Both the position numbers and the translations under genes were made by a program. Below, in pieces: positions 46,156 to 60,278 of a stretch of 64,000 nucleotides of DNA (position 1 is its first letter; every line of letters begins with the position of its first letter). Below the pieces are notes generated by a model. That model made no database searches, was not told the DNA's origin, and worked only from the letters and a program-made list of their open reading frames with translations. The stretch spans positions 14,070 to 78,069 of the forward strand of contig CACIQI010000005.1 in NCBI GenBank assembly GCA_902588745.1. Direction: 5' to 3'. The DNA is from an uncultured Alphaproteobacteria bacterium. GTDB lineage: Bacteria; Pseudomonadota; Alphaproteobacteria; HIMB59; GCA-002718135.

Positions 46156-46815
46156 TTACAATGAAAAAATAGATTGATCTAATAAATTCATTTTTTTAAT
46201 ACACATTTGAAAACTATCTTCTAAATGGTAATCGCCTGGAAACCCAATGCATTTAATTCCAGCGTTTACGGCAGAATTACTACTTTCTTCAGTATCCTCT
46301 ATTGCAATACAATCTTCTGGCTGTAAATTTAATTTATCTAATGTAACTTTATAAATTTCTGGATGTGGTTTTTCATTTTTAACAAATGATTTATTACCAA
46401 TGAATTCAAATTCTTCTTTTGAAATTTGACCAGAAAGACTTTCAAATACTGCATCGACATTATTTAAAGTTGTAGAAGTTGAGAAAGCAAGTTTAATATT
46501 ATTATCTTTTGTATACTTAATTATTTCATCAACGCTCTTTCTTAATTTTTGTTTATTCTGAATAATGAACGAGCTAAAGATTTCTGTTTTTCTATTTCTA
46601 ATTTGTGAAGCATTTACATTAACATTATTTTTTTCAGCAAAATCTTCTACCCTTTTTGTCCCTCCAGATTTTTTTAACAAAATTTTATAGTCTTGCTCAT
46701 CCCAATACCAATCAAGTCCAGCTTCTTTAAAAGCTTCATTAAATGAGTTACGTTGAATGTTAGAAGATTCAATTAGTGTCCCGATAGATCCAAATAAAAG
46801 TGCTTTATATTTCAT
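46156..46815 (-). CDS. HAD-IA-like (CbbY/beta-phosphoglucomutase-like) protein with degenerate motif I
   Basis: 219 aa. Motifs II-IV are recognisable (FSTST, EKPHPEIY, IEDTEESSNSAVNAG), but motif I reads LLFGSIGTL instead of F-D-x-D-G-T-L. Confidence 0.75.
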   Translation of the reverse strand: MKYKALLFGSIGTLIESSNIQRNSFNEAFKEAGLDWYWDEQDYKILLKKSGGTKRVEDFAEKNNVNVNASQIRNRKTEIFSSFIIQNKQKLRKSVDEIIKYTKDNNIKLAFSTSTTLNNVDAVFESLSGQISKEEFEFIGNKSFVKNEKPHPEIYKVTLDKLNLQPEDCIAIEDTEESSNSAVNAGIKCIGFPGDYHLEDSFQMCIKKMNLLDQSIFSL

Positions 46816-46834: not shown

Positions 46835-47716
46835 TTAACCTTTTACTGCTCCAGCAGTTAAACCACTTATTAATTGTCTTTGGAAAAACATGATTATCAT
46901 AAAAAGTGGTGCAGTTGCTGAAACAACACTTGAGACTGCCCACATATAATTTCCACTATGTTCAATTGTGCCCAAATAAGCATTAATTTTAGGAACCATA
47001 GTATAATTCTGCTGATTTAAAAGAAGTGAAGTAACTGTAAAATCATTATAGGCTAACATCATACTGAATAACCCTGCTGTAACAACTCCAGGCCACATAA
47101 CAGGCATTATAACAAAGCGAAACGCTTGAAAATATGAACAGCCATCAATTAGCGCACTTTCATCTAACTCTTTAGGAACTGTTTTAAAGAAGGAATAAAG
47201 TAACCATAATGTAAAGGGTTGATTGATTGCAACTAAAACAATTATGGTAGTTGGAAGTATGCCCCAAACGTTCAATTGGAAGAAAGGAAATAGATAACCA
47301 GAAACTAATGTAATGTGTGGCATCGCTCTAAAAATCAATGCAGCTATTAAGATCCAAAAAGTATATTTATATGTCGATCTAGACAAGGCATAAGCACCTA
47401 ATGTTCCTAAAAATAAAGAGATTGTAACAACTGAAACAGTAATAATAATTGTATTCATTGTTGCTTTCCAAAATTCACCTTCAGTCCAAGACTCTACATA
47501 TGCCTTAACTGTAGAAGTATCTCCTGTTTCTATCAAAGTATTAACTCCTGTGACTGCAAACATCCAATCAGCTCTTGAGAAAAAGTCGGCTTTTACTTTA
47601 AATGATCCCCAAAAAGTCCATATAAAAGGAAACACGGAAATAATTAACCAAGCAAGAATAAAAAAACTATTTATTAAAATTAGTTGTTTTGAGTATCTGT
47701 TAATTTTTGATTCCAT
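46835..47716 (-). CDS. CUT1 sugar ABC permease (MalG-like)
   Basis: 293 aa with the EAA loop LDESALIDGCSYFQAFRFVIMP. Confidence 0.85.
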   Translation of the reverse strand: MESKINRYSKQLILINSFFILAWLIISVFPFIWTFWGSFKVKADFFSRADWMFAVTGVNTLIETGDTSTVKAYVESWTEGEFWKATMNTIIITVSVVTISLFLGTLGAYALSRSTYKYTFWILIAALIFRAMPHITLVSGYLFPFFQLNVWGILPTTIIVLVAINQPFTLWLLYSFFKTVPKELDESALIDGCSYFQAFRFVIMPVMWPGVVTAGLFSMMLAYNDFTVTSLLLNQQNYTMVPKINAYLGTIEHSGNYMWAVSSVVSATAPLFMIIMFFQRQLISGLTAGAVKG

Positions 47717-47717
47717 A

Positions 47718-48746
47718 TTATCTTTCCGTTCTAAATTCTCTCCATGTTCTTATAAGTACTGGTGTTAATAGAATTGCTACACCAATAATAGTTAACATAG
47801 ATGTTGCTCCTGCAGATCCAAATAACATTTTGTTTTCACTTCTTAAGTCATTATAAATCATCCAAGAAAGTGATTGAGCAACTCCTTCAGCAGCGAACCC
47901 GATTATTGGCTCAAGAACCCTAAAATTATCCATTAGACAAATTAATATAATAAATGTTGCTACCGGATAAAGATGTGGAATAACAATGTGTCTGACTCGT
48001 TCATATCTTGAGGCGCCATCTATGATCGCTGCTTCAATTGGATCTTGAGGAACAGTTTGTAATGCAGCATAAAAGACAACAAAAGCAAATGGTGTATTGT
48101 GCCAAATCCCATAAATAATCAGAGTAATCCAAGTCAATTGACTTGAGGACTTTAGTGATAGGTTTGGATCATCAAATAAGAATTGAATAAATGAACCTAA
48201 TATTCCCTTAGCATCTATCATCCAAAATAAAACGAGAGATCCAATCAATGGTGTTACAATCATAGGCAGTATAACACCAAAAATGGTTGGGCCTTTTAAA
48301 CTTTTTGTAATTGTATTTACACTTAAAGCAACGATGAAACCTAAAACTACAACTGGTGGTGTAACGGCAAAACAAAATGTAAGTGTAAATAAAAGTGCTT
48401 TGTAAAAAGGTAAATTTAGTAAGATATCCGTAAACTCAGCTATGGATGAGGAATTAGTCCAAGCCTCTTTAATTTCATCAAAAGCTAAATGATTTCTATC
48501 GCCGTATGTTCCTAAACCATTAAATCTTCCAAGAGGCTGTTCCTCTTGTAATTTTGTAGTGGCCTCAATATCTACTTTAGTTTCAGTTTTACATCCAAAT
48601 GGATCGCATTTTTCTACTTCCATTAAAATTTGTTCAGGTTCAATATGTAGAGATTGAAAAAAACTAGAAATAATTGGAAGTCCAATAAATAATAGCATTG
48701 CCAATCCACTTGGAAAGAAGAACCAAAAAAATGTTCTGTGGGGCAT
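47718..48746 (-). CDS. CUT1 sugar ABC permease (MalF-like)
   Basis: 342 aa with the EAA loop IEAAIIDGASRYERVRHIVIPHL. Confidence 0.85.
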   Translation of the reverse strand: MPHRTFFWFFFPSGLAMLLFIGLPIISSFFQSLHIEPEQILMEVEKCDPFGCKTETKVDIEATTKLQEEQPLGRFNGLGTYGDRNHLAFDEIKEAWTNSSSIAEFTDILLNLPFYKALLFTLTFCFAVTPPVVVLGFIVALSVNTITKSLKGPTIFGVILPMIVTPLIGSLVLFWMIDAKGILGSFIQFLFDDPNLSLKSSSQLTWITLIIYGIWHNTPFAFVVFYAALQTVPQDPIEAAIIDGASRYERVRHIVIPHLYPVATFIILICLMDNFRVLEPIIGFAAEGVAQSLSWMIYNDLRSENKMLFGSAGATSMLTIIGVAILLTPVLIRTWREFRTER

Positions 48747-48766
48747 CTATTTCTTACTAAAAAAAA

Positions 48767-48790
48767 AGTGGAACATAATAATGTTCCACT
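48767..48790 (-). terminator. hairpin plus T8 tract between the binding-protein gene and the first permease gene
   Basis: The minus strand reads AGTGGAACAT-TATT-ATGTTCCACT (10-bp stem) followed by TTTTTTTT, 12 nt before the permease ATG (48746). Confidence 0.7.
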
Positions 48791-48812
48791 TTATCATAAA
48801 TATTTATACGGT

Positions 48813-50048
48813 TTATAGAAATCCTTGCTCAGTAGCTTTTGCTACATAAGCAGCTTCTACATCCGCTAATGCTTTTTCAGCAGACTCATTTCCTTGAAGG
48901 AATTCAACAAGTTCTGTACTCAAAGCACCATGTAATAGACTCATGTATGGTAAGCTTGGGTAAGGTGTTGCACCTCTATTAGCAGCGTCAACAACTGGCC
49001 CTGCTGTATCTCCAGGCGAATAACCATCAATCAACCAAATTGTTGCATTTGGATTAGCATTTGCCATTTCTGTTGAAGTTGCTGCACCTAAAAGAGCTCT
49101 AAAAGATGCTTCTGCATTTTCATCAGAAGTGTTTGTTGCAATTCCAAATCCATCCCACCATAGAGTTGTTGCTGGTTTACTTCCACCACCTACAGATGGA
49201 GAAGGAGCTAATCTAGTATCAGCTTTAATTGCTTGATCACCTTCGTCATCTAACAATGAAGCTGCACCTGAGTTCCAGATATGCATTAATGCTACATTAC
49301 CAGACTCCCATTCTTCTTTAACTGCATTTGTATCTTGAGTTAAGAAATCAGGGTTACTTACTTCGGTTAATCTTTTAAGCATATTAAGAGCAGCTACACC
49401 TTTAGCGTTATTTACACTAACTTCAGCTGTTCCAGCTTTAAAGAAATCACCTCCATGACCTAGGTACATGTTTACAAACTCTTGACCTAAGTTCCATCCA
49501 GATTTGAAAGCACCAGCATATGGGTTAGCCATTTTACCAGAAGCTTTAATTTTTTCTGCAGCCGCAATTACCTCTTCATATGTTGAAGGAACTGCGATAC
49601 CTAAATCATTAAGAATACTTTCTCTGTACCAAAGATGTTGAGCATTAGCCATAAATGCTACTGCATAAATTTTACCATCAATCACGATTTTTTGATTGTC
49701 TTGTAATGCACTTCCGTATTTAGCAACTAAATCATCAAGTGGACGAATTAAGTTATCATTCATTAAAGTTGTAATTGAACCATTAGTAACAAGTTTAGCA
49801 GAGAATTCAGCTGGGTTAGCTGAAAGTGCTGCAACTTGTAATTTATTATGATCAACAGAATGTGTTACAGAAAAATCTGCATCAGGTCCTGCACAACTTT
49901 TTACTTCATCCATGAAAATTCTGTATGTTGTAAATTCGTTTGCTAGAATCTTTATTGATCCATCTGTTACTCCACAAGGTGAGTGCCCACCGGCATATGC
50001 ACTTGTGCTAACAAATGTGAACAATAGAGCTATTAATAGTTTTTTCAT
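48813..50048 (-). CDS. extracellular solute-binding protein family 1 (CUT1)
   Basis: 411 aa. Signal peptide ...FVSTSAYA followed by GGHSPC. Operon-first position. Confidence 0.85.
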   Translation of the reverse strand: MKKLLIALLFTFVSTSAYAGGHSPCGVTDGSIKILANEFTTYRIFMDEVKSCAGPDADFSVTHSVDHNKLQVAALSANPAEFSAKLVTNGSITTLMNDNLIRPLDDLVAKYGSALQDNQKIVIDGKIYAVAFMANAQHLWYRESILNDLGIAVPSTYEEVIAAAEKIKASGKMANPYAGAFKSGWNLGQEFVNMYLGHGGDFFKAGTAEVSVNNAKGVAALNMLKRLTEVSNPDFLTQDTNAVKEEWESGNVALMHIWNSGAASLLDDEGDQAIKADTRLAPSPSVGGGSKPATTLWWDGFGIATNTSDENAEASFRALLGAATSTEMANANPNATIWLIDGYSPGDTAGPVVDAANRGATPYPSLPYMSLLHGALSTELVEFLQGNESAEKALADVEAAYVAKATEQGFL

Positions 50049-50131: not shown

Positions 50132-50157
50132 TGAATTGATATTCAAGATTTTGAATA
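50132..50157. promoter_or_regulatory. array of TGAAT/ATTCA half-sites including TATTCA-N6-TGAATA, 20 nt upstream of the LacI gene
   Basis: TGAAT 50132-50136, TATTCA 50140-50145 and TGAATA 50152-50157. The same motif recurs at 52787-52804 and 56989-57006. Confidence 0.5.
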
Positions 50158-50177
50158 TTGAAATGGGGGGATAATTC

Positions 50178-51176
50178 ATGAGTTTTAAAAAGACTGCGAC
50201 ATCACAGGACGTAGCAAAACTAGCAGGAGTATCCCAATCAGCTGTTTCTAGATGTTTTACAAAAGGTGCTAGCATTTCTAGTAGAACAAAATTGAGAGTC
50301 TTGGAAGCAGCTAGGAAATTAAAATATAAAGCACCTAATATATCTTCTAATTCAATATCTAATGACGATAGCGGATTAGTTGCTGTCATTTTACCTTACG
50401 TTACAAGCAGATATTATCCAGAAGTTTTAATAGAGTTACATGAAGCACTTAGGAATGGGGGGTTTAGAATTTTATTAATTACAACTGATGATGGAGAGGA
50501 ATTAGATGAAAAATTAATACAGCCATACTTAAAAGAAAAACTTATTGCAATAATATCAGCCACAAAACCTACTGAAAAATTTGTTGAAGACTGCAATCAA
50601 AAAAGAATACAGTTTATTGCCTATAATAGAAGTTGGAATATACCAACGATAAGTTCCGTTGCATGTGATCATCGTAACGGAGGAGAAATAGTTGCAGAAT
50701 ATTTTACAAATAAAAATCATAAAAATATTGGTCTCATTGAAGGGCCAAAAGGATCTTTTGTTAGCGATGAGCGATGCAAAGGTTTTAAAAATTATCTTAA
50801 AAATAATAAAAAAATTAAATTAAATATTGAAAAAGGTTTTTTTACTTATGAAGGTGGATATCAAGCAACTGAAAAAATTTATAATAAAAACATAAGTGCA
50901 ATATTTTGCGCTGACGACACAATGGCATTTGGTTGTTTAGATTATATTAAAAAAAATACTTCGTTAAAAACACCTTCTCAATTAGAAATTATTGGTTATG
51001 ACGATATATCTATGTCAGCTTGGGAATCATATAACCTAACAACTGTCAGACAGCCTATTAGACAAATGTCAAAACTAGCAACTCAATTAATAAATGAATT
51101 TATTAAGGATCCAGATTTTGAACCTATAAATCATATTGTACAGGGAAGACTTATAAAAAGAAAAACTACAAAATAA
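50178..51176 (+). CDS. LacI family transcriptional regulator
   Basis: 332 aa. N-terminal HTH ATSQDVAKLAGVSQSAVSRCF plus a periplasmic-binding-fold effector domain. Confidence 0.9.
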   Translation: MSFKKTATSQDVAKLAGVSQSAVSRCFTKGASISSRTKLRVLEAARKLKYKAPNISSNSISNDDSGLVAVILPYVTSRYYPEVLIELHEALRNGGFRILLITTDDGEELDEKLIQPYLKEKLIAIISATKPTEKFVEDCNQKRIQFIAYNRSWNIPTISSVACDHRNGGEIVAEYFTNKNHKNIGLIEGPKGSFVSDERCKGFKNYLKNNKKIKLNIEKGFFTYEGGYQATEKIYNKNISAIFCADDTMAFGCLDYIKKNTSLKTPSQLEIIGYDDISMSAWESYNLTTVRQPIRQMSKLATQLINEFIKDPDFEPINHIVQGRLIKRKTTK

Positions 51177-51177
51177 T

Positions 51178-51597
51178 TTATTTAAATTTTAATCCCATCT
51201 GTTCAAAAACACCATGATTATCTACCATAACGTAATTATCTAAAAACTTTCCATCTTTAATGGTCCAAAAATCTGAAAATTGCATTTTGATAGATTTGCC
51301 TGTTGGCTCTACTCCAAGATATGTTCCACTATGTGTACCTGTTAGAAATCCCGTTGCACTAATCCACTCACCTTCAGCAACCACAATATCATTTTTTACA
51401 TGATAATCTGGAAATGCTTCATAAAAAGGTTTTAGAACTTTATATTTAAAATTTTCTATACCATGGATATCACCAAAACCTGGAGGACCATGCCAGACCA
51501 TATTATCATGCCAGTACTTGTGTTGTGCTTCTAGATCTTGAGCATTAAGTGCATCATACATATCAGCTAATAATTTTTTACTTTCATCTAAAGTCAT
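51178..51597 (-). CDS. single-domain NTF2/SnoaL-like protein (predicted ester cyclase type)
   Basis: 139 aa. YWHDNMVWHGPPGFGDIHG...TGTHSG.YLG..PTGK......DFW.I.DGK pattern typical of SnoaL-like ester cyclases. Confidence 0.75.
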   Translation of the reverse strand: MTLDESKKLLADMYDALNAQDLEAQHKYWHDNMVWHGPPGFGDIHGIENFKYKVLKPFYEAFPDYHVKNDIVVAEGEWISATGFLTGTHSGTYLGVEPTGKSIKMQFSDFWTIKDGKFLDNYVMVDNHGVFEQMGLKFK

Positions 51598-52733
51598 TTT
51601 TTATCTCCTAAAATTTGCATTAGAATTGCAAGCTCATTAAAACCAGTCCACTCTTTAATAATTTTATTATTTTTAATTTCCCATTGTGTGATTCCCCACA
51701 AATACACTTCTCTATTAGTTGGTTGGCCATATGAGCCATTCCCTTTATGCGTTCCTACTGCGCCCCAACGAACCGATACTAAATAGCCGTCTTTTGTATT
51801 TCCCATCCAGTATAAATCTTCAATACTAAGTGCAAGATCAGGAAATGAAGCTAAAATTGAAATTATAAATTTTCTTAATTGCAAAACTCCTTTAAATTTA
51901 CGACCAGTTGAACCTTCAAATTCTACCTTACTAGAGTATGCTTTATTTATTGCAGAAAAGTTTCGTCTATTCCAAATTGTATCATAAACTGCATGAACAA
52001 ACTCTCTTACATTTGTAATTTTATCTGGAATATCAAAACTAATTGGTTTTAATTTAGTAATATTTCTTGTTGGCTTAGAGTTTTTAAAGTGAGGAGCATA
52101 GGGCCCTGAAATTCCATCATCAACAAGTTGCTTGGCAACTTGATTTAAATCTAATCCGAGTTGTTTAATTAAACCTGCTGTATCGTAGACAACATTTTCG
52201 TAATAAATTTCATTATTTTTTGCTACACAATTTGCAATACAAAATAATCTTACTTTTTTACCAGTTGGTTTAGAAAATTTGCTAAATCCTGTATTTGTTC
52301 CGGTAATAATTGTTCTATGCGAAGTATGAAAACTTGCGTTTTCATTTCCTGCCCAAATAACTTCATCTGCAAATAATCGAATATCTGGAAAGGCGTTGTT
52401 TGTGTGTACAGTATCAGCTACTATTTTTTCAGATCCAGATTGTAAACCAAATTCATCCCAAACTCTGCAATCTTTACTGTAGGTATCATAGATGTAGCCA
52501 ATATTTTTTTCTTCCCAGATTTGATATGTAATCCTTACAATATAATCAATTATATTTTTATACTGATCCTCAAACCCCTTCATTGATTGATGTTTAAGTT
52601 TTTTTGGTTTTGGATTTAATGACTTAGCAGTTCCTCCACCACCGTATGCTTTTAATGAAATATCATAACTCTTAGGCATATGATGATCTTGAAGGGCTTC
52701 TGGTCTTTTATCTATAATTTTTTTAAATTTCAT
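51594..52733 (-). CDS. two-domain NTF2/SnoaL-like protein, type I (paralog of 54978-55970)
   Basis: 379 aa with two tandem SnoaL-like halves (ITYQIWEEKNIGYIYD...VIWAGN...TGKKV and VYDTIWNRRNF...VRWGAVGTHKGNGSYGQPTNREV). Confidence 0.65.
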   Translation of the reverse strand: MKFKKIIDKRPEALQDHHMPKSYDISLKAYGGGGTAKSLNPKPKKLKHQSMKGFEDQYKNIIDYIVRITYQIWEEKNIGYIYDTYSKDCRVWDEFGLQSGSEKIVADTVHTNNAFPDIRLFADEVIWAGNENASFHTSHRTIITGTNTGFSKFSKPTGKKVRLFCIANCVAKNNEIYYENVVYDTAGLIKQLGLDLNQVAKQLVDDGISGPYAPHFKNSKPTRNITKLKPISFDIPDKITNVREFVHAVYDTIWNRRNFSAINKAYSSKVEFEGSTGRKFKGVLQLRKFIISILASFPDLALSIEDLYWMGNTKDGYLVSVRWGAVGTHKGNGSYGQPTNREVYLWGITQWEIKNNKIIKEWTGFNELAILMQILGDKK

Positions 52734-52766
52734 AATTTGTATTTGTAATGAGATACATTTAAAAAT

Positions 52767-52804
52767 ATTTCAAAGCAATGAAATTTTATTCAAAAAAATG
52801 AATA
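52767..52804. promoter_or_regulatory. tandem inverted repeats ATTTCA-N6-TGAAAT and TATTCA-N6-TGAATA, starts 20 bp apart
   Basis: Read directly: 52767-52784 and 52787-52804, centred in the 107-bp divergent spacer between the two SnoaL-like genes. Confidence 0.5.
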
Positions 52805-52840
52805 TTGTCTTTTTTAGTTTATTAATATAATCAAAATGGA

Positions 52841-53845
52841 ATGACTGATCTCCAAGCAGAAAAAAAATTAGTATTAGATTATTTCAATGAAATAGATAGT
52901 TGCAACATTGATTCATTATCTGAAGTTATATCCAAATACGCATCAGAAGAATTTAGTATGAAATGTACCCACCCATTCAACGAACTAGGTAGTATAGATC
53001 TTGTTGCTAATAATCTTTGGAAACCAATTAAAGATTCATTTTCACCTATACAACGTCGATTAGATATATTTTATGCTGGGATAAATTCATTAGATAAAAA
53101 TAAAGGTAAATGGATCTCCAGTATGGGTCATTTCATGGGTGTTTTCAATAAACCGTTTGTAGGCCTTAAACCAAATTATAAATCTACTTTATTAAGATTT
53201 GCTGAATTTTATAAAGTGGAGAATAATAAAATTACTGAAGGAGTAATTTTTTTAGATGTAATGAATTTAATGCAGCAACTAGGTCTTTCTATAATTCCTG
53301 AATCTACAGGTCTCGTTTGTGTAACACCAGGACCAATGAATCATAAAGGTTTAAAATTTGATATTTCTAATGAAAGTGAAAGTCAAAAAACATTGGATTT
53401 AATTCATAGAATGCGCGATCGACTTGTTAAAGGATCCAAAATGCAATCTTATAAAGAAGAATTAGAATTAGATTGGCATAATGACATGATTTGGTGGGGA
53501 CCAGGAGGTATAGGGGCTTCATATACTATTGATGGTTATCAAAAAGGTCATACAAAACCATTTCAAGATGGTTTAGAATTTGTTCGTTTCAATGGACACA
53601 TACTTAGTAGCTCTGAAGATGATCTCGGAGGTTGGTTTGGTTGGCCAAATTTAATTATGAAACCTAAAGGAGAATATTTAGGATTAACAAATGCAAGTGA
53701 TATTGAATCAGAAATGAGAGTTGTAGATTTATATCGAAGAGATGGAGATAAACTAGCTGAAAACTGGATCTTTATTGATCATTTACATTTTTTAAAAAAA
53801 CTAGGAGTGGATCTTTTAGAAAGAGCAAAATTTTTAAATCAGTAA
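52841..53845 (+). CDS. two-domain NTF2/SnoaL-like protein, type II (paralog of 57045-58142)
   Basis: 334 aa. The C-terminal half WHNDMIWWGPGGIGASYTIDGY resembles the single-domain protein 51178-51597. The N-terminal half is a more divergent NTF2-like domain. Confidence 0.6.
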   Translation: MTDLQAEKKLVLDYFNEIDSCNIDSLSEVISKYASEEFSMKCTHPFNELGSIDLVANNLWKPIKDSFSPIQRRLDIFYAGINSLDKNKGKWISSMGHFMGVFNKPFVGLKPNYKSTLLRFAEFYKVENNKITEGVIFLDVMNLMQQLGLSIIPESTGLVCVTPGPMNHKGLKFDISNESESQKTLDLIHRMRDRLVKGSKMQSYKEELELDWHNDMIWWGPGGIGASYTIDGYQKGHTKPFQDGLEFVRFNGHILSSSEDDLGGWFGWPNLIMKPKGEYLGLTNASDIESEMRVVDLYRRDGDKLAENWIFIDHLHFLKKLGVDLLERAKFLNQ

Positions 53846-54973
53846 TTAGATAACTTTTGAGGCAAGTTTAGTACCCTCAACTAATGCATGAAGCTTTTCA
53901 TAACAAATTTTTTCATCAATTTTTCCAAAACCAGCAAATGTACTAAAACCACAATCTGTCCCTGCCATCAATTGATCTTTTGGAATGACTGTAGAAAACT
54001 GAATTAATCTATCTGCAACAACTTCTGGATGCTCAACAAAATTAGAGGTTGAGTCGATTACTCCAGGTACTAAGACTTTATCTTTTGGTAACTTTATATC
54101 TTGAAAAACTTTCCATTCATGTGCGTGCCTAGGATTAGAAGATTCAATGAGAAAGTATTTTACCTTTGATTTCAAAATTATAGGTAATATTTTCTCTAGA
54201 GCAATATCGTGTGTGTGGGGTCCTTCATAATTGCCCCAACATATATGCATTCTAGTTTGCTCAACATCTACATTAGATAATGCTAAGTTTAGACATTCAA
54301 TTTGTAGTTCTGCACGTTTTATAAACTCATCTTCAGATAAATTTTTAAAATTCATATGTCTTGCTAAAGCAAGGTCTGGGCAATCTAATTGAACTTGGAT
54401 ATCTGATTTTGTTATTAGCTCATATTCTTTGGCCATAATATTAGATAATTTATCCAAATATTCATCTTCGGTACTATAAAATTTATTTGGCATAAAAACA
54501 TTTATGACGCCAGGTGATGCTGAGTTCATAAATGCATGTCGGTGATTAAGTTTATCAAGTGAATTTTTAAAATTATTTATATCCTGTAGAAGAGAAGTTT
54601 CATCTTTTACTTTTAATTCGTTTGTACAACATGGTCTGGTATAAGTTGGAGTGCCACCACTTTTAGCAATCTTTTCTTTGTATTCTGGAAAATCATCAAG
54701 ATCAGCAGGTGCTCTTCTTTCGCTTTCACCTGAGAACCCATCAATTCTGTCTTTAATATATGTAGCGTAGCTAATTTTACTCATCTCCCCATCACTGACA
54801 AAATCAATTCCAACATCAAGTTGGCTCTTAACAACACTTTCCACGTTATTTTTTAATACTTCATCAAAACTACTTTGACTAAATTTCTCTCCTTTATCTT
54901 TTGCAAATAGAAATTCTGAAAGTTCTTTTGATCTAGGAAGGCTTCCAACATGTGTTGTTAAAATATTAGACAT
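53846..54973 (-). CDS. core-only cobalamin-independent methionine synthase-like protein (MetE C-terminal domain family)
   Basis: 375 aa with TTHVGSLPRS, DGEMSK, HICWGN and GTDCGF blocks. Confidence 0.75.
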   Translation of the reverse strand: MSNILTTHVGSLPRSKELSEFLFAKDKGEKFSQSSFDEVLKNNVESVVKSQLDVGIDFVSDGEMSKISYATYIKDRIDGFSGESERRAPADLDDFPEYKEKIAKSGGTPTYTRPCCTNELKVKDETSLLQDINNFKNSLDKLNHRHAFMNSASPGVINVFMPNKFYSTEDEYLDKLSNIMAKEYELITKSDIQVQLDCPDLALARHMNFKNLSEDEFIKRAELQIECLNLALSNVDVEQTRMHICWGNYEGPHTHDIALEKILPIILKSKVKYFLIESSNPRHAHEWKVFQDIKLPKDKVLVPGVIDSTSNFVEHPEVVADRLIQFSTVIPKDQLMAGTDCGFSTFAGFGKIDEKICYEKLHALVEGTKLASKVI

Positions 54974-54977
54974 TAAA

Positions 54978-55970
54978 TTAACCTGTTTTTAATAAAATCT
55001 GTTTCCAGATCATAGTTTCATCATAGAGAACCCATTCATTTTTAATACCTCTTTCTCCAAATTCAACATGATTAATACCCATTATATAAATTTTCGAATT
55101 AGAGGCTTTCCCAAAAAGACCATCTCCTTCATGTTTACCTACCATAGACCATCGAACTGAAGCTTTTTTAGGTTCATATTTTTCTTCTGTAAAAGCAATG
55201 TGCTCAACTGAGAACAATGCGTTAGGAAAAGCATCTCTTAATTGTTTCCAAAATTTTATTACCTCATCTCTACCATAGTGAGTATTTCCCCCTGGTTGAA
55301 ATTGCTGTATGGCTCTGTCATAACTATCATTTATTGTTTTCTCTAAATTGATGTTCATAATAGAGGTTAAGATATTTGCATATAATTCTCCAATGTTACC
55401 AGATGCTAAAATAGGAGATTTATAAATTGATTTAACAGGTGTATTTTCATCAAAGGGTTTACTAGCTTTTTCAGGACCACCCTCATCTTTAACAAGATTA
55501 CTTGCAAATTTCTTGGGGTCAATTCCAATTTGTCTCACAATTGCTCCTTGATCTCTCACAAGCCACTCATCATAAACTTGATTATTCATGCATGCACAAT
55601 CAGCGATAGTTCGGTAATATAGTTTTTTTCCTGTTGCTTTCCCATACATCCCATCAACAGAATGAGTAGAGGTTGATAAAATGCGATGCGACGAAAAATA
55701 TCCCTCATCATCATTTCCTGTCCAAATTACATCTTCACCTAAAAGTGTTCTATCGGGAAATAGTTTTTTACTAGCATAGGTACTTTCAATTACTGGGTCT
55801 GCACCATAAATTACTCCAGATGGAGATCTTGTAGGTGTGGGGAGGCTTACATTTGGAGTATCAGCATAATAATCTCTTATTGCTTCAACATCGTTTTTTT
55901 CCCAAATTTGATATGTAATCTTTAAAATATAATCAGGAAAATCTTTGAATTGTGAATCAAATCCTTTCAT
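54978..55970 (-). CDS. two-domain NTF2/SnoaL-like protein, type I (paralog of 51594-52733)
   Basis: 330 aa. FKDFPDYILKITYQIWEKNDV...VIWTGNDDEGYFSSHR...ATGKKL and VRWSMVGKHEGDGLFGKASNSKI parallel the paralog. Confidence 0.65.
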   Translation of the reverse strand: MKGFDSQFKDFPDYILKITYQIWEKNDVEAIRDYYADTPNVSLPTPTRSPSGVIYGADPVIESTYASKKLFPDRTLLGEDVIWTGNDDEGYFSSHRILSTSTHSVDGMYGKATGKKLYYRTIADCACMNNQVYDEWLVRDQGAIVRQIGIDPKKFASNLVKDEGGPEKASKPFDENTPVKSIYKSPILASGNIGELYANILTSIMNINLEKTINDSYDRAIQQFQPGGNTHYGRDEVIKFWKQLRDAFPNALFSVEHIAFTEEKYEPKKASVRWSMVGKHEGDGLFGKASNSKIYIMGINHVEFGERGIKNEWVLYDETMIWKQILLKTG

Positions 55971-55981
55971 ATAATTAATAT

Positions 55982-56953
55982 TTAATTAGTTTGTCGTATT
56001 ATAAATAAATTACCATCATGATTACTTATCTGTCTTATTGAACGAAGTGAATTTTTTGGAACAGAAAAAGTATCTTTTTCTTTAATTACAACTTTGTCTC
56101 CATCACAATCTATTTCCCATTCACCAGATAAACAATGATACACTTCTGATTTCTCCAGTTTGTATTCATGTATATGAGCACTCTTGCCGTTGAGAAGTGA
56201 AAGGCTAAAACCTGTTTCATGCGGTATATTTGGAGTAAAAGATTTATCATGAATTTGAAACTGATCAATGTAGTTGATAATTTTATTAGATTGATAGTGA
56301 TCATCATCGACAAAATATTTATCTTTATCATTAAATCGAATAACAAACTTTTCTATGTCTTCTGAAGAGTAATGATCGAAACTCTCTAATTCATTATCTT
56401 CTAATGGCTGAATAATTTTAGTTTCATCTGTTACTTTCTGTTTCTCTGTGTCTATTAAAGAATTATCATTCATTAATACCATGCCAGATTCTTTTGCATC
56501 TTTTAAAAGTTTAGGTGTCCAAGTAATAACACCTGGATCATTTTCACCTAACACAACAAACATTAAAGCTTCTTCATCACTTACATTTTGAAAACCTCTG
56601 AACATGTTTGTGGGAAAAGAAGCGATATCACCTTTTTTTAGTATTACTTCTCCTTCTGTGCCATCAACACCCCAATAAAAACGCCAGGCACCTGAGTGAA
56701 TTATAAAAACTTCTGCTGTTGTGTGACTATGTAATCCAGAGCCATTCATCGGCGCAGCACTGACAGCACCAATATTAAAGCCATGTTCTTCAGCTATTTT
56801 AACATTTTGTTTAGCATCTTCACTTACACCAGGTCCTATAACTGAATAATTTTTCCTATCTTGATGACCTTTTAGTTTTCCCTCAACAAAAGGTATATTA
56901 CTAGGAATAAGTTCATCGAATTTAGCTAATCTAGATGTAATATTAATTGACAT
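55982..56953 (-). CDS. bicupin protein (two cupin domains, both with HxH...E metal-ligand pattern)
   Basis: 323 aa. Cupin 1 is GSGLHSHTTAEVFIIHSG and cupin 2 is GKSAHIHEYKLEKSEVYHCLSG. Confidence 0.7.
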   Translation of the reverse strand: MSINITSRLAKFDELIPSNIPFVEGKLKGHQDRKNYSVIGPGVSEDAKQNVKIAEEHGFNIGAVSAAPMNGSGLHSHTTAEVFIIHSGAWRFYWGVDGTEGEVILKKGDIASFPTNMFRGFQNVSDEEALMFVVLGENDPGVITWTPKLLKDAKESGMVLMNDNSLIDTEKQKVTDETKIIQPLEDNELESFDHYSSEDIEKFVIRFNDKDKYFVDDDHYQSNKIINYIDQFQIHDKSFTPNIPHETGFSLSLLNGKSAHIHEYKLEKSEVYHCLSGEWEIDCDGDKVVIKEKDTFSVPKNSLRSIRQISNHDGNLFIIRQTN

Positions 56954-56968
56954 ATTTTAATGATCTTT

Positions 56969-57006
56969 TATTCATTTTTTTTGAATATTATTCAAAATAA
57001 TGAATA
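56969..57006. promoter_or_regulatory. tandem inverted repeats TATTCA-N7-TGAATA and TATTCA-N6-TGAATA, starts 20 bp apart
   Basis: Read directly: 56969-56987 and 56989-57006, in the 91-bp divergent spacer between the bicupin gene and the type II SnoaL-like gene. Confidence 0.5.
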
Positions 57007-57044
57007 AATCAATTATTATTTAACAATAGTGTTATTAAATTATT

Positions 57045-58142
57045 ATGGCAAATAAAATACAAAACTTTGATACAGGTGAGAAAGATAACTCAAACATAAT
57101 TCATTTAGATCTTGATCCAAAGATAAATATTGAAAACAAAATATATTTTAAAAATTTATTAAAAAAAATTGTCGAGTGCTCTTTAGATAATTTAGAAGAA
57201 AATCTTGAAAATTTATATCACGTAGATGCTGAGTTTAATGGATTTCATCCAATTAATGAAATTAAAGGAATTGAAGAAATAAAAAATAAATTTTTAATAC
57301 CTCTAAAGAAGGCATTCCCCGATCTCGAAAGAAGAAATAATCTAGTTATTGGAGGAGCATTTAGAGATAAAGTTTTTGTTTCATTTATTAGTCATTTAAC
57401 TGGAACTTTTAAAAATGAGTGGTTAGGCGTAAAGCCGACTAACAAAACAATTTATCTTAGAACATGTGAAGCACATCAGATTACAAATAATAAAATAATA
57501 AAATCCTATACATTAATTGATACTGTAGATTTTATCCGTCAGGCTGGATATTGGCCTATAAATAAATCTCTTGGGGTAGAAGGGATGTGGCCTAGTCCAA
57601 TCACAGGTGATGGAGAAAATAATCAAAATTTAGATAAGGAACTGTCTCTTCAATCTTTGAATCAAGATTTAACCATGCAAAGAAGTTTAAATATTAAACC
57701 TGAGACTGAGCCAGGTCTATCAAAAGATCAAATAAGGGAGAAATTAATTAATCATCCTCAACAAGATTATTGGCACCCAAAAATGATGTGGTATGGGCCA
57801 AGTGGTATAGGTACAGCTAGAGGTTTAGATGGTTTTGTTGATCATCATCAGCTCCCATTTAGACTTACATTCAAGGAAAGAGATTATTGGAAAATCGGTC
57901 ATTATATTGAAATTGGAGATGGAAATTATTCTATGACTGGTGGTTGGCATAGTATTCAGTGTGTTCATGGATCAAGTGATTGGTTAGGATATGAACCTAC
58001 TCAAAAAAAAATAACAATGAGAGTTATGGATTTTTATTTACATCATGAAGGGTTAATTAGAGAAAATTGGGTACCGATCGATATAGCACACATATTAGAT
58101 CAAATAGGCATTGATATCTTTAAATTAATTCATAAAAAATAA
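57045..58142 (+). CDS. two-domain NTF2/SnoaL-like protein, type II (paralog of 52841-53845)
   Basis: 365 aa. WHPKMMWYGPSGIGTARGLDGF and the C-terminal ...ENWVPIDIAHILDQIGIDI parallel the paralog (...ENWIFIDHLHFLKKLGVDL). Confidence 0.6.
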   Translation: MANKIQNFDTGEKDNSNIIHLDLDPKINIENKIYFKNLLKKIVECSLDNLEENLENLYHVDAEFNGFHPINEIKGIEEIKNKFLIPLKKAFPDLERRNNLVIGGAFRDKVFVSFISHLTGTFKNEWLGVKPTNKTIYLRTCEAHQITNNKIIKSYTLIDTVDFIRQAGYWPINKSLGVEGMWPSPITGDGENNQNLDKELSLQSLNQDLTMQRSLNIKPETEPGLSKDQIREKLINHPQQDYWHPKMMWYGPSGIGTARGLDGFVDHHQLPFRLTFKERDYWKIGHYIEIGDGNYSMTGGWHSIQCVHGSSDWLGYEPTQKKITMRVMDFYLHHEGLIRENWVPIDIAHILDQIGIDIFKLIHKK

Positions 58143-58144
58143 TT

Positions 58145-59464
58145 ATGGCAATAGAATATTTAAAAAAAGGTTTAGACGAAAAACAAAGAATTGAAGATAA
58201 TGATAAAGTAAAAAAAATTGTTGAGGAAACGTTAAGTAAAATTGAATCAGAAGGCGATAAACATATTAGAGAGTTATCTCAAAAATTTGATAACTATTCT
58301 CCAGATAGTTTTAGATTAAGTGAAGATCAAATTAATCAATTAATGAGTGAAGTCTCTGATGATGACAAAGAAGATATTAAATTTGCTCAAAAACAAGTGC
58401 GATCATTCGCGGAAGCACAACTTAAAACTTTAAGTGAATTAGAAGTAGAAACGCATCCAGGTGTGATTCTTGGTCATAAAAATATACCAGTACAAGCAGT
58501 AGGATGTTATGTACCTGCCGGAAAATTCCCAATGGTAGCTTCTGCTCATATGTCAGTTGTTACTGCCTCTGTTGCTGGGGTTCCAAGAATTGTTGCTACC
58601 ACCCCACCATTTAAAGGTAAGCCAAATCCAGCTGTCGTTACAGCAATGAAAATGGGTGGTGCTCACGAAATTTATGTTTTGGGAGGAATGCAAGGAGTTG
58701 GTGCTATGGCTATTGGTACAGAAACTATTAAACCTGTAGATATGCTTGTTGGACCTGGCAATGCATTTGTTGCTGAAGCGAAAAGACAATTGTATGGCAA
58801 AGTTGGTATCGATTTATTTGCTGGTCCAACTGAAACAATGGTAATTGCAGATGAAACTGTTGATGGTGAAATATGTGCAACAGACTTATTAGGACAAGCT
58901 GAACATGGATATAATTCTCCTGCTGTGATGATAACAAACTCAAGAAAACTTGCAGAAGAAACATTTAAAGAAATTGATAGAATTTTAGAAATTTTACCCA
59001 CTAAAGAAACAGCAAGTACAAGCTGGAGAGATTATGGAGAAATAATTTTATGTGATACTTATGAGGAGATGTTATCTAAAGCAAATGAAATAGCTTCAGA
59101 GCACGTTCAAGTTATGACAAAAAAAGATGATTGGTTTTTAGAAAATATGACATCTTATGGAGCTCTATTTTTGGGCGCTAGAACTAATGTTGCTAATGGT
59201 GATAAAGTCATAGGCACTAACCATACTCTTCCTACTAAAAAAGCTGGAAGATATACTGGTGGTTTGTGGGTTGGTAAGTTCATTAAAACCCATACTTATC
59301 AAAAGATTATGACAGATGAAGCTGCAACTCTCATCGGAGAATATGGATCTAGACTTTCACATTTAGAAGGTTTTATAGGTCATGCAGAACAATGTAATGT
59401 GAGAGTAAGACGATATGGGAAAAAAAATGTTGGATATGGAAAACCAGCAGGAGAAAAAATTTAG
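58145..59464 (+). CDS. histidinol dehydrogenase family NAD-dependent 4-electron alcohol dehydrogenase (HisD paralog; sulfopropanediol 3-dehydrogenase HpsN-like candidate)
   Basis: 439 aa with a LLGQAEHG block, a GPGNAFV block and a C-terminal H..E region of the HisD family. No other his genes are adjacent. Confidence 0.85.
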   Translation: MAIEYLKKGLDEKQRIEDNDKVKKIVEETLSKIESEGDKHIRELSQKFDNYSPDSFRLSEDQINQLMSEVSDDDKEDIKFAQKQVRSFAEAQLKTLSELEVETHPGVILGHKNIPVQAVGCYVPAGKFPMVASAHMSVVTASVAGVPRIVATTPPFKGKPNPAVVTAMKMGGAHEIYVLGGMQGVGAMAIGTETIKPVDMLVGPGNAFVAEAKRQLYGKVGIDLFAGPTETMVIADETVDGEICATDLLGQAEHGYNSPAVMITNSRKLAEETFKEIDRILEILPTKETASTSWRDYGEIILCDTYEEMLSKANEIASEHVQVMTKKDDWFLENMTSYGALFLGARTNVANGDKVIGTNHTLPTKKAGRYTGGLWVGKFIKTHTYQKIMTDEAATLIGEYGSRLSHLEGFIGHAEQCNVRVRRYGKKNVGYGKPAGEKI

Positions 59465-60267: not shown

Positions 60268-60278
60268 ATTTTTATAAT

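Follow-up and report, generated by a model that had tools for sequence, protein, structure and literature searches.

The genes between positions 45375 and 59464 of a 64-kb window (the whole stretch of DNA analyzed, whose positions are used throughout) probably form a single LacI-repressed catabolic regulon whose substrate is an imported small carbohydrate-like compound. The unit has roughly 16 genes and includes SnoaL/NTF2, bicupin, MetE-like and HisD-like genes together with a CUT1 ABC importer, a HAD hydrolase, an SDR and a LacI regulator; the window itself is a sugar and polyol utilization island. Hundreds of species of SAR11, the most abundant bacteria in the ocean, carry the regulon, and relatives of its type II NTF2 proteins occur in at least 577 species genomes. 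As an earlier note on this DNA had held, no characterized pathway with this gene combination was found in the literature, nor any paper describing the pathway. That note had called eight open reading frames (five SnoaL/NTF2, bicupin, MetE-like and HisD-like), all of which are present at the coordinates and on the strands given here:

45375..46142, minus strand: SDR oxidoreductase, final gene of the ABC operon (adh_short_C2, 202 bits)
46156..46815, minus strand: HAD-family hydrolase, beta-phosphoglucomutase family (HAD_2, 73 bits)
46835..47716, minus strand: ABC permease 2, CUT1 type (open reading frame; L001 and L002 orthologues with BPD_transp_1)
47718..48746, minus strand: ABC permease 1, CUT1 type (open reading frame; L001 and L002 orthologues with BPD_transp_1)
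48765..48792, minus strand: hairpin with a 12-bp stem, then a T-run (scan for terminator-like sites)
48813..50048, minus strand: periplasmic solute-binding protein, CUT1, with signal peptide (SBP_bac_1, 70.7 bits)
50140..50157, unstranded: operator O1, TATTCAAGATTTTGAATA, between the ABC operon and lacI
50178..51176, plus strand: LacI-family repressor (LacI HTH and Peripla_BP_1/3/4 domains)
51178..51597, minus strand: S1, single-domain SnoaL/NTF2 protein (SnoaL, 88 bits, one PF07366 stretch)
51594..52733, minus strand: I_a, tandem SnoaL/NTF2 protein, type I, 379 aa (SnoaL PF07366, two stretches, 84.7 bits)
52787..52804, unstranded: operator O2, TATTCAAAAAAATGAATA, between I_a and II_a
52841..53845, plus strand: II_a, tandem SnoaL/NTF2 protein, type II (SnoaL PF07366, two stretches, 46.8 bits)
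53846..54973, minus strand: core-only MetE-like Zn enzyme, 375 aa, lacking the N-terminal domain (Meth_synt_2, 51 bits)
54978..55970, minus strand: I_b, tandem SnoaL/NTF2 protein, type I (SnoaL PF07366, two stretches, 51.5 bits)
55982..56953, minus strand: bicupin (Cupin_2, two stretches)
56989..57006, unstranded: operator O3, TATTCAAAATAATGAATA, between the bicupin gene and II_b
57045..58142, plus strand: II_b, tandem SnoaL/NTF2 protein, type II (SnoaL PF07366, two stretches, 64.6 bits)
58145..59464, plus strand: HisD-family four-electron dehydrogenase, HpsN clade (Histidinol_dh, 446 bits)

The genes are arranged in six transcription units (binding protein-permease-permease-HAD-SDR; lacI; I_a-S1; II_a; bicupin-I_b-MetE-like; II_b-dehydrogenase) that start at three divergent promoter regions, each with one copy of the same 18-bp operator. 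This palindrome (TATTCA-N6-TGAATA) has three perfect matches in 64 kb versus 0.02 expected, and O1 and O3 overlap promoter-like sites on the minus and plus strands, respectively. The operator was spotted by eye rather than in an unbiased motif search, and the genome-wide count and cross-locus test came afterwards. Across 82 related SAR11 loci (1.5 Mb), 126 of 126 operator copies lie at those three places, with a copy found 29, 34, and 62 times at the O1, O2, and O3 positions, respectively; loci L057 and L066 lack lacI and also lack the operator. Of the complete loci among these 82, all but one retain the core order MetE-like, type I (I_b), bicupin / type II (II_b), HisD-like. Because three promoter regions share a LacI-type operator and synteny extends over these loci and distant phyla, the genes act together. 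The LacI gene (50178-51176) and the CUT1 binding protein and two permeases (46835-50048) do lie beside the cluster, as described there, but are not mere flanks; they belong to the same unit, which reaches to 45375. A regulon with LacI and a CUT1 ABC system is most naturally read as serving the catabolism of a small polar compound taken up from outside; the algal origin proposed in the earlier note is a conjecture.

The binding protein's best PDB match (2e-11) is a trehalose/maltose binder, and no close match was found among the solved binding proteins in the PDB, so there is no liganded structure to guide substrate assignment; its exact sequence was found on 978 contigs. The hairpin just 3' of its gene is a putative intra-operon attenuator or mRNA stabilizer. 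The permeases share 45-64% identity with cluster permeases of Ruegeria, Marinovum, Vibrio, Ensifer, Mesorhizobium, and Alloyangia. The HAD hydrolase scores 80 bits against TIGR02009, under that model's cut-off, and in SAR11 its gene accompanies the cluster in architectures A, B, and C. The SDR scores 208.6 bits against the NCBIfam 'glucose 1-dehydrogenase' subfamily (cut-off 215), has orthologues (37-42% identity) within the Ruegeria, Ensifer, Mesorhizobium, and Priestia clusters, and is placed after the HisD-like gene in SAR11 loci of type C.

All five SnoaL/NTF2 genes score above the Pfam gathering thresholds and, since S1 aligns with both halves of the tandem proteins, hold nine domains in all, the count given in the earlier note. 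The type I pair (I_a/I_b) shares 32% identity over 331 aa (E 6e-55) and the type II pair (II_a/II_b) 27% over 327 aa (E 1e-37), which sustains the paralogy proposed for both. S1 overlaps the I_a stop codon by 4 nt, and I_a has a 50-aa N-terminal extension that is kept in its orthologues. Because Ruegeria, Marinovum, Ensifer, and Mesorhizobium (Rhodobacterales and Rhizobiales) have a separate orthologue for each of type I, IIa, IIb, and the single-domain protein, the paralogues (27-32% identity) are ancient, and each member probably has its own role. The same distribution speaks against a segmental duplication making two units here, as had been suggested; the two proposed type I/spacer/type II units do contain paralogous pairs, but in the second it is the bicupin gene, not type I, that borders the spacer. 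Orthologues share 34-35% identity with S1 (Ruegeria, Marinovum, Ensifer, Mesorhizobium), 40-44% with II_a (the same genera and Vibrio), and 43-49% with I_b (plasmid-borne). The I_b family has 162 representatives at E<=1e-30, II_b has 2185 homologues, and the Deinococcus and Priestia NTF2 copies have their nearest relatives in the I_a type.

AlphaFold modeled the N-terminal domain of II_b at pLDDT ~90 and the C-terminal domain with low confidence, and Foldseek matched the model to SnoaL-like cyclases, with the tandem proteins Lsd19 and MonB aligning across both domains; at the level of the predicted structure, the NTF2 fold of the N-terminal domain is confirmed. These top matches are anthracycline and polyether enzymes, and the Pfam SnoaL family is named for polyketide cyclases, which would suit a cluster that makes a polyketide-like or other secondary metabolite, after the automatic name 'ester cyclase / polyketide metabolic process'. 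We regard this as hardly credible, as no polyketide synthase, acyl carrier protein, ketosynthase or tailoring set was found in any SAR11 or non-SAR11 locus examined, the genes are always linked to an importer (binding-protein-dependent ABC or MFS) and a LacI repressor, and such production is not known from SAR11 genomes. NTF2 folds often serve as binding modules or oxygenase beta subunits, and the nine domains recur in SAR11 type A, Ruegeria conchae, and Halobellus, so the proteins might instead be non-enzymatic, serving as hetero-oligomeric subunits, scaffolds or binding proteins from which a few 'real' enzymes receive the substrate. This too is unlikely: type II has many invariant polar residues (among them several His, Asp, Glu, and Arg), the modeled structure is closest to those of enzymes, and the Vibrio pelagius cluster consists of the importer and four tandem NTF2 genes only, which is sensible only if NTF2 proteins are catalytic.

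The bicupin, core-only MetE-like and HisD-family assignments of the earlier note agree with the domain matches listed above, which likewise exceed the Pfam gathering thresholds. In the N-terminal cupin, H75, H77, E81, and R119 are invariant, while the C-terminal site is less conserved. The bicupin model has a pLDDT of 66.7, with low confidence in the N-terminal domain, and its top Foldseek matches (oxalate decarboxylase, quercetinase, and salicylate 1,2-dioxygenase) are all bicupins, confirming this fold for the predicted structure. The MetE-like protein scores far under the NCBIfam equivalog cut-offs; its HICWGN, IES, and DCG motifs align with the Zn ligands of MetE and its GS...GE with residues of the homocysteine site, and from these sequence features it is a probable thiol methyl/alkyl transferase. 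No riboswitch (no SAM riboswitch) is present at its gene. Its orthologues share 49-52% identity in Ruegeria and Marinovum and 38% in Halobellus. The gene is absent from several complete versions (Deinococcus, Mesorhizobium, Ensifer, Priestia), so methyl removal there would be optional or performed by another enzyme.

The cluster families occur together in Ruegeria, Marinovum, Ensifer, Mesorhizobium, Alloyangia, Deinococcus, Priestia, and Novosphingobium, with partial sets in Vibrio and Halobellus; the gene set is ancient and held together across phyla. Identity of the B1 genomes to the window is 40% for the binding protein, 62% for I_b, 78% for II_b, 86% for the MetE-like protein, 91% for the bicupin, and 98.6% for the dehydrogenase. 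Versions outside SAR11 add an enol-lactonase-like hydrolase resembling PcaD and a pyruvate aldolase that resembles HpaI/GarL or is an RraA family member; one amidohydrolase is similar to cog3618 lactonases. The aldolase is absent from SAR11 versions and the hydrolase from most of them, so the end of the pathway is not visible in this genome.

In the proposed route, the CUT1 system would import the compound, probably energized by a MalK-type ATPase encoded elsewhere (e.g. 16868-17950). Cofactor-free steps on enol/enolate intermediates would then fall to SnoaL/NTF2 enzymes of at least four functionally distinct kinds (type I, IIa, IIb, and single-domain), with roles assigned from fold precedent only; candidate steps are removal of a substituent by addition-elimination, tautomerization, dehydration, and retro-aldol ring opening. 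The MetE-like enzyme would demethylate the compound, with homocysteine or another thiol as the methyl acceptor, the SDR would supply a redox step, and the bicupin, with its 2-His-1-Glu site and invariant Arg, could perform a metal-dependent isomerization or an O2-dependent cleavage. The dehydrogenase may convert a -C(OH)-CH2OH end to -C(OH)-COOH with 2 NAD+, and the HAD hydrolase has no place in the scheme. As the non-SAR11 sets continue with the enol-lactonase-like hydrolase and an RraA-/HpcH-type aldolase, we infer that the carbon ends as pyruvate and a small acid. In SAR11 the transporter and NTF2 genes diverge fast and are swappable, so their products probably recognize what varies within a family of related substrates; the bicupin, MetE-like protein, SDR, and dehydrogenase would act on the core that these substrates share. 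The leading substrate candidates, put forward tentatively, are mycosporine-like amino acids or gadusol-type C7 cyclitols (sunscreens).

A 6-substituted 6-deoxyhexose or a polyol is likewise a possible, if doubtful, substrate. It would be degraded by an oxidative non-phosphorylative Entner-Doudoroff-like route, with sulfo-ED logic and a non-sulfonate X at C6, in which the SDR oxidizes C1, a lactonase cleaves the resulting lactone, an NTF2 or cupin protein dehydrates the sugar acid, an aldolase yields pyruvate and X-lactaldehyde, and the HisD-like enzyme converts this aldehyde to the acid. We give this route a minority chance. The SDR nearly reaches the glucose 1-dehydrogenase cut-off, lactonase-like hydrolases and an HpaI/GarL-like aldolase are compatible with it, the minimal Priestia operon maps onto it one-to-one, LacI with CUT1 is typical of sugars, the island setting fits, and CpHpsN accepts an aldehyde intermediate (PMC11382572). 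However, a sugar-acid dehydratase of the NTF2 or cupin type is not known, the aldolase is missing from SAR11 versions, and the route does not account for the need for four to five different NTF2 enzymes, the methyl transferase, the recurrent amidases or the second HisD-like gene. DHPS-type sulfonates are improbable at best, and some other compound takes the remaining weight.

The dehydrogenase belongs to the HisD family, as the earlier note had it, but is closer to HpsN than to HisD (403 bits to CpHpsN 8v35 vs 260 bits to true HisD). It is 48% and 45% identical to two validated HpsNs, its best PDB matches (1e-119), and 72-73% identical to cluster copies in Ruegeria, Alloyangia, Mesorhizobium, and Ensifer; databases label it a DHPS (sulfonate) enzyme (JGI name sulfopropanediol 3-dehydrogenase). 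Were it a true HpsN forming sulfolactate, the cluster would be a pathway for DHPS or another C3-sulfonate, and the remaining genes would process a sulfonated precursor (sulfoquinovose, sulfoquinovosyl-glycerol). SAR11 is a reported DHPS user (PMC11131964), CUT1 binding proteins are known to import sulfoquinovosyl-glycerol (SmoF weakly matches the binding protein here, 5.5e-7), and sulfur-nucleotide genes adjoin the cluster (APS-kinase-like and CysQ in the window; cysNC/cysD in L001). Those neighbors lack the operator, however, and no suyAB, xsc, cuyA, hpsO/P pair, sulfite exporter or sulfite dehydrogenase was found in the nine non-SAR11 clusters examined. An assayed SAR11 'HpsN' had a Km of 106 mM for R-DHPS and merely a 2.2-fold preference over histidinol, and is probably the other SAR11 variant (G-R-Y-N-N), not the G-K-F-P-M enzyme. 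A sulfonate pathway is thus quite unlikely, and DHPS and sulfolactate, suggested in the earlier note, are less likely substrates than the annotation implies, since the enzyme is of the HpsN clade yet fails the HpsN sequence test. HpsN binds sulfonate through the motif G-R-Y-A/S-H and its His126 (PMC11382572); the dehydrogenase (at residues 126-130) and all cluster copies have G-K-F-P-M instead and therefore lack this His, and the catalytic Glu-His pair, Asp, and Lys (Lys353) of HpsN are kept.

The genes at 45375-59464 are a widely conserved LacI regulon, not described before, that encodes NTF2 enzymes of four kinds and an HpsN-like dehydrogenase of a new subfamily. An ORF check recovered all eight ORFs of the cluster proposed in the earlier note, with coordinates and strands unchanged. 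Pfam confirmed its bicupin, MetE-like and HisD-like genes (two-cupin, Meth_synt_2-only and Histidinol_dh proteins, respectively) and located upstream a LacI regulator and a CUT1 binding protein. The cluster is real, and more coherent than was visible from sequence alone.

Genes and predicted operators of the regulon (window coordinates)
45375-50048, ABC operon: binding protein (SBP), two CUT1 permeases, HAD hydrolase, SDR
50140-50157, operator between the SBP gene and lacI
50178-51176, lacI
51178-51597, S1, single-domain NTF2 protein (one SnoaL stretch)
51594-52733, I_a, type I NTF2 protein (two SnoaL stretches)
52787-52804, operator between I_a and II_a
52841-53845, II_a, type II NTF2 protein (two SnoaL stretches)
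53846-54973, MetE-like protein
54978-55970, I_b, type I NTF2 protein (two SnoaL stretches)
55982-56953, bicupin
56989-57006, operator between the bicupin gene and II_b
57045-58142, II_b, type II NTF2 protein (two SnoaL stretches)
58145-59464, HisD/HpsN-like dehydrogenase

These genes share a perfect 18-bp palindrome, TATTCA-N6-TGAATA, which is common to three divergent intergenic regions and occurs only three times in the 64-kb window (0.02 expected from dinucleotide shuffles). The 82 related SAR11 loci (1.5 Mb) contain 126 perfect copies, 62 between the bicupin gene and II_b, 34 between I_a and II_a, 29 between the SBP gene and lacI, and one at a contig edge; loci without the LacI gene are also without the operator. 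The regulator has the HTH_LacI and periplasmic-binding-like domains of its family, and the palindrome is its predicted operator in the target promoters. Gene spacing fits six transcription units (I_a and S1 overlap by 4 nt, II_b and the dehydrogenase gene are 2 nt apart, and the gaps along the ABC-HAD-SDR genes are short), and on the basis of the shared operator and this spacing the functional unit is set at 45375-59464, including the ABC importer, HAD hydrolase and SDR. No riboswitch or other RNA was found in the window using Rfam, and a sigma-70 promoter scan gave fewer matches than shuffles in this AT-rich DNA. A 12-bp, GC-containing hairpin with a T-run lies at 48765-48792, after the gene for the binding protein and before the first of the permease genes; a hairpin at this place is the usual device to over-express the binding protein relative to the permeases.

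The predicted CUT1 importer consists of an SBP_bac_1 binding protein and two BPD_transp_1 permeases, with no ATPase within the regulon. A MalK-type ATPase is encoded at 16868-17950, and the ATPase gene is inside the cluster in L002 (a distant SAR11-like genome), Ruegeria, Marinovum, Vibrio and Ensifer. The binding protein was seen on nearly a thousand contigs, and a PDB search found no close characterised relative; identity with the characterised SAR11 glucose binder was rejected, as there was no close PDB match. Positions 1-31980 hold a carbohydrate and polyol utilisation island, unusual for SAR11, which also includes five Gfo/Idh/MocA genes.

Other genes of the carbohydrate and polyol island (window coordinates)
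358-1653, enolase-superfamily gene
2635-7148, CUT2 ABC system
7253-8440, UxuA
9481-10911, mannitol-dehydrogenase-family gene
16868-22403, second CUT1 system with MalK ATPase
22539-23912, fucose-isomerase-like gene
25919-26827, PfkB kinase
27951-29003, aldose 1-epimerase

Directly downstream of the dehydrogenase gene, on the opposite strand, three genes at 59466-61070 encode a 131-aa protein without a Pfam match, a 137-aa P-loop protein that resembles a truncated APS kinase, and a phosphatase of the CysQ family; in the related locus L001, cysNC, cysD and cysQ occupy the matching slot (12423-15992). These sulfur-nucleotide genes belong to a lineage said to lack sulfate assimilation, and are probably outside the regulon because they have no operator. 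At 38424-41016, a sulfatase gene (PF00884; PehA-like, 408 bits, below its cut-off) shares 44 nt with another core-only MetE-like gene (39916-41016; Meth_synt_2, 140 bits), and the two look like a second, unrelated pair of ester hydrolase and MetE core. Four ORFs of 92-155 aa, at 50111-50389 (-), 58672-59001 (-), 59810-60277 (+) and 61736-62029 (+), are antisense to well-supported genes and are probably spurious shadow ORFs.

All five NTF2-like ORFs were placed by Pfam in the SnoaL/NTF2 clan above gathering thresholds, scoring 46.8-88.1 bits against a cut-off of 28.4 (PF07366 or PF12680), and the count of nine domains was correct, S1 aligning to both halves of the tandem proteins in pairwise BLAST. 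By the same method, identity is 32% within the type I pair (E 6e-55) and 27% within the type II pair (E 1e-37); with paralogues this divergent, and with separate orthologues outside SAR11, the segmental duplication that the earlier note had suspected is rejected as a recent event. A mis-called I_a start codon was ruled out, the 50-aa extension being conserved. The G+C content of the cluster is uniform with the remaining window, and public copies of its proteins come from Pelagibacteraceae. Confidence in the AlphaFold models was limited (mean pLDDT 66-67), with the II_b N-domain at about 90 and its C-domain at low confidence. The II_b N-domain is modelled as a cone-shaped alpha+beta barrel, matches SnoaL-like cyclases and limonene epoxide hydrolases in Foldseek (ChaU, AclR, IdmH and LEH; E about 1e-6, TMt 0.72-0.79) and also resembles PhzA/B, and the tandem NTF2 enzymes Lsd19 and MonBI-II align across both II_b domains, the C-domain part resting on the low-confidence model. 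The NCBIfam SnoaL_meth_ester score was 30.9 bits against a cut-off of 200, and no PKS genes, and hence no type II PKS/anthracycline context, were found in any SAR11 or non-SAR11 locus examined.

An exact-match contig look-up with II_b gave no match. For its family 2185 homologues were detectable, most of them in marine metagenomic data, with relatives in at least 577 genomes (scanned at one genome per species), and the best 80 of these genomes are almost all SAR11 single-cell genomes. When all window proteins were compared with the related loci using tblastn, the order MetE-like, I_b, bicupin, II_b, HisD-like, with the divergent intergenic region between bicupin and II_b, was kept in essentially every complete SAR11 locus, L002 being the one clear exception. 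Architecture A is the same as the window; B is without S1, I_a and II_a, has a binding protein 40-47% identical to that of the window, and sometimes includes an additional type II-like gene as well as an alpha/beta hydrolase; C is without LacI and has SDR/HAD genes after the dehydrogenase. Closely related SAR11 genomes (L034-L044, L060-L069) carry strongly divergent transporter and NTF2 genes at the same locus. In some B-type genomes with flanks 95-99% identical to the window, the bicupin (91%), MetE-like protein (86%), SDR (91%) and dehydrogenase (98.6%) are conserved while the binding protein (40%), permeases (42-53%), I_b (62%) and II_b (78%) diverge; given this contrast, the genes for the transporter and the NTF2 proteins behave like one specificity module that can be swapped at a single chromosomal locus, and the allelic mosaic suggests that swapping is driven by recombination. 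Contig L040 (NYXO01000073.1) bears the label 'Methanobacteriota archaeon ARS96' but has a SAR11 cluster of type B, with a dehydrogenase 99% identical to that of the window, and is almost certainly a mis-binned SAR11 contig. In L002 (8709-14739) an alternative oxidase gene follows the cluster; next comes another CUT1 system, which includes a glycoside hydrolase resembling GH63/MGH1 (the family of mannosyl- or glucosyl-glycerate hydrolases).

Outside SAR11, searching the proteins of annotated plasmids and chromids revealed the gene set in cultured bacteria; plasmid records of Sinorhizobium and Ensifer are unannotated, and the Ensifer cluster was annotated by hand. Ruegeria conchae and Marinovum algicola encode a UgpC ATPase, SBP, two permeases, single-domain NTF2, HisD-like, type II, SDR, LacI, type I, bicupin and MetE-like proteins, plus an alpha/beta hydrolase and an RraA-family protein, and Ensifer, Mesorhizobium and Alloyangia have close variants of this set. 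Reduced versions in Deinococcus, Priestia and Novosphingobium comprise LacI, SDR, cupin, alpha/beta hydrolase and HpcH-type aldolase genes with 1-4 NTF2 genes, 1-2 HisD-like genes and an amidase or C-N hydrolase.

Identity of alphaproteobacterial orthologues to the window proteins (reciprocal comparison)
S1, 34-35%
Type I, 46-49%
II_a, 40-44%
II_b, 32-46%
MetE-like protein, 49-52%
Bicupin, 30-33%
SDR, 37-42%
Binding protein, 39-47%

The genes have been inherited together since ancient times, and because the alphaproteobacterial clusters hold separate orthologues, the multiplicity of NTF2 genes is an ancient division of labour and not a SAR11 expansion. The type I family is compact: 162 of 1.84 billion representatives matched at E<=1e-30. 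In Vibrio pelagius the cluster is limited to the importer and four tandem NTF2 genes, beside sarcosine oxidase (soxBDAG) and purU, and Halobellus limi has five NTF2 genes and a MetE-like gene beside a GcvT-family protein; the one-carbon and glycine-type neighbours in these two loci (L085, 2544-8710; L086, 427-1779) hint that glycine, sarcosine or methyl units are released, or could be coincidence.

The dehydrogenase (PF00815, 446 bits) scored 403 bits to the solved HpsN 8v35 and 260 bits to HisD 4g07, and is named sulfopropanediol 3-dehydrogenase by JGI. It also scored 431 in TIGR00069 (HisD; cut-off 244), which indicates that this model does not separate the HisD and HpsN subfamilies, and it lies in a LacI catabolic regulon, not a his operon. 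Conserved with the Cupriavidus enzyme CpHpsN are the catalytic Glu318/His319 ('ASEH'), the Zn ligand Asp352 and the sulfonate-contacting Lys353 ('GDK'). In the CpHpsN structure, an HpsN-specific loop, G-R-Y-A/S-H, ends in His126, which switches between Zn and sulfonate, and HisD has G-S-A-P-L at that position (PMC11382572). Residues 126-130 of the window protein are G-K-F-P-M, like neither, and the loop reads G-[KR]-[FY]-P-[MIL] in every copy linked to a cluster. The alphaproteobacterial cluster copies are 72-73% identical to the SAR11 protein, and either is only 45-48% identical to validated HpsN; suyAB, xsc, cuyA and the hpsO/hpsP pair are absent from the window cluster and from nine non-SAR11 clusters. 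The enzyme is therefore not filed as HpsN, and a DHPS-type role for the cluster is unlikely. Like HpsN, it probably turns a vicinal hydroxy-CH2OH group into a 2-hydroxy acid by four-electron oxidation, but its substrate would be another one, probably not a sulfonate. A second SAR11 variant with the loop G-R-Y-N-N, 54% identical to validated HpsN and 46-48% to the window protein, fills the slot after II_b in five loci (L027, L053, L055, L058 and L059), and in L002 (15122-16408) stands beside a rhodanese gene instead. This variant is probably the SAR11 'CuHpsN' of Liu et al., for which they report that the Km for R-DHPS was 106 mM and the preference over histidinol only 2.2-fold.

At 375 aa, the MetE-like protein is about half the length of full-length MetE (~750 aa); PF01717 matched at 51 bits (cut-off 21), PF08267 gave no match, and the best NCBIfam methionine-synthase equivalog scored 105.6 bits (cut-off 406). 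Alignment to 1ypx and to Cys733 of Arabidopsis MetE shows HICWGN, IES and DCG as its Zn-ligand motifs, and V-G-S11 and D-G-E63 align with Arabidopsis S439 and E490, which we take to be the homocysteine-site Ser and Glu. The enzyme most plausibly takes a methyl group off the substrate. The bicupin has Cupin_2 in two stretches, with Foldseek matches to OxdC, YxaG and salicylate dioxygenase (E about 1e-13). Its N-domain has invariant His75, His77 and Glu81, with an invariant Arg119 in place of the motif-2 His that is usually the fourth metal ligand, and the His residues of its less conserved C-terminal site are not invariant; the complete 3-His(+Glu) site of bicupin dioxygenases and decarboxylases is therefore lacking. 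The SDR scored just under the glucose 1-dehydrogenase cut-off, and its PDB matches were generic and FabG-like, with no substrate clue. The clusters outside SAR11 include accessory enzymes similar to 3-oxoadipate enol-lactonase, to cog3618 lactonases and to pyruvate aldolases of the HpaI/GarL or RraA type, the RraA-family protein matching weakly (3e-8 to an uncharacterised PDB entry, 1e-6 to a LigK model). Together with the SDR, by homology, these look like a lower pathway that would oxidise, open and aldol-cleave its intermediates and end in pyruvate. [quoted passage not shown]

A literature search that included MAA catabolism and SAR11 pangenome work found no description of the cluster, in agreement with the view that no characterised pathway has this composition. 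The candidate class that explains more of its features than any other is mycosporine/gadusol, tentatively put forward from chemical reasoning. MAAs and gadusol are UV sunscreens of phytoplankton, cyanobacteria, fungi and zooplankton. Their ring C(OH)-CH2OH would allow the HisD-like oxidation, their enol methyl ether the MetE-like demethylation, and the amino acids on their imine/enaminone carbons could be removed by NTF2 enzymes, with PhzA/B, by analogy, as a precedent for NTF2 imine chemistry. In the order of steps that we infer, tandem NTF2 enzymes would strip the amino-acid substituents from the imine/enaminone ring, an activity long known from Vibrio to which, to our knowledge, no gene has been assigned. 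The MetE-like enzyme would move the enol methyl group onto homocysteine to give methionine, and the HpsN-like enzyme would oxidise the ring C(OH)-CH2OH to C(OH)-COOH. The bicupin, with O2, might then cleave the resulting cyclic reductone to 4-carboxy-4-hydroxy-2-oxoadipate, a known substrate of RraA-type aldolases, which an RraA or HpcH aldolase would split into pyruvate and oxaloacetate. Bacteria are reported to turn shinorine and porphyra-334 into mycosporine-glycine and 4-deoxygadusol, with no genes named (PMC3083659). The MAA reading would also explain the second HisD-like gene and the amidase of the terrestrial versions (fungal mycosporine-glutaminol) and the swappable SAR11 transporter/NTF2 modules (many MAA variants), and would fit the sun-exposed habitats of the hosts (surface ocean, saltern, high altitude and leaf surfaces). 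Chemical logic and cluster contents make it conceivable, if doubtful, that the regulon is the first catabolic pathway for MAAs or gadusol.

Given the extreme streamlining of SAR11, the presence of relatives of these genes in at least 577 species-level genomes and that of the binding protein on nearly a thousand contigs, the substrate is likely a significant surface-ocean carbon flux. Naming it would explain what four orphan NTF2 orthogroups, a new HisD/HpsN subfamily and a catabolic core-MetE do; through the core-MetE, bacteria unable to reduce sulfate could have a new way to make methionine from a dissolved metabolite. Genes of the subfamily are annotated hpsN or hisD, and where ocean surveys of genes and transcripts take 'SAR11 hpsN' as a measure of DHPS oxidation, part of the count may belong to another pathway. 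The question is directly testable, as cultured, genetically tractable hosts (Ruegeria conchae M340, Marinovum algicola DG898 with pMaD9, Phaeobacter inhibens NZ_CP019309.1, Ensifer adhaerens) carry the cluster.

The system is of a known kind, a substrate-inducible catabolic regulon, and its substrate is probably ecologically important. Like the classical LacI and CUT1 sugar regulons (mal, thu, smo), it has a repressor with palindromic operators in divergent promoters and a binding-protein gene followed by a hairpin and two permease genes, with the ATPase shared or encoded elsewhere; unlike them, it is without the glycoside hydrolase, kinase or isomerase of standard sugar routes, and its catalytic genes are NTF2, cupin, MetE-like and HisD-like. 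The NTF2 proteins are predicted to share the alpha+beta barrel of SnoaL/AknH cyclases, Lsd19 and MonBI-MonBII, and two domains are fused in one chain as in Lsd19, but identity is only 11-20%, and the setting is an importer-linked catabolic regulon instead of a polyketide or polyether pathway. The MetE-like protein presumably belongs with the core-only, folate-independent MetE relatives (MesA-D type; 1ypx, 3rpd), which are likewise a single barrel without the N-terminal folate domain and whose Zn ligands and homocysteine-site Ser and Glu it conserves, but its gene lies in a LacI-controlled catabolic operon without a SAM riboswitch. The dehydrogenase has the fold and clade of HpsN (Cupriavidus pinatubonensis 8v35 and Ruegeria-type 8wwe; 45-48% identity), but is without the sulfonate-binding, Zn-switching His126, and its partners are NTF2, cupin and MetE-like genes rather than hpsO/hpsP/suyAB/xsc/cuyA. 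As in lower pathways with a class II pyruvate aldolase as the last step (those of protocatechuate 4,5-cleavage with LigI/LigJ/LigK, homoprotocatechuate with HpaI, glucarate with GarL, and sulfo-ED), the non-SAR11 clusters have a lactonase-like hydrolase and an RraA- or HpcH-family aldolase beside the cupin and SDR; these enzymes all score well below family cut-offs, however, the clusters are without a LigAB-type dioxygenase or IlvD/enolase-type dehydratase, and the SAR11 version is without an aldolase.
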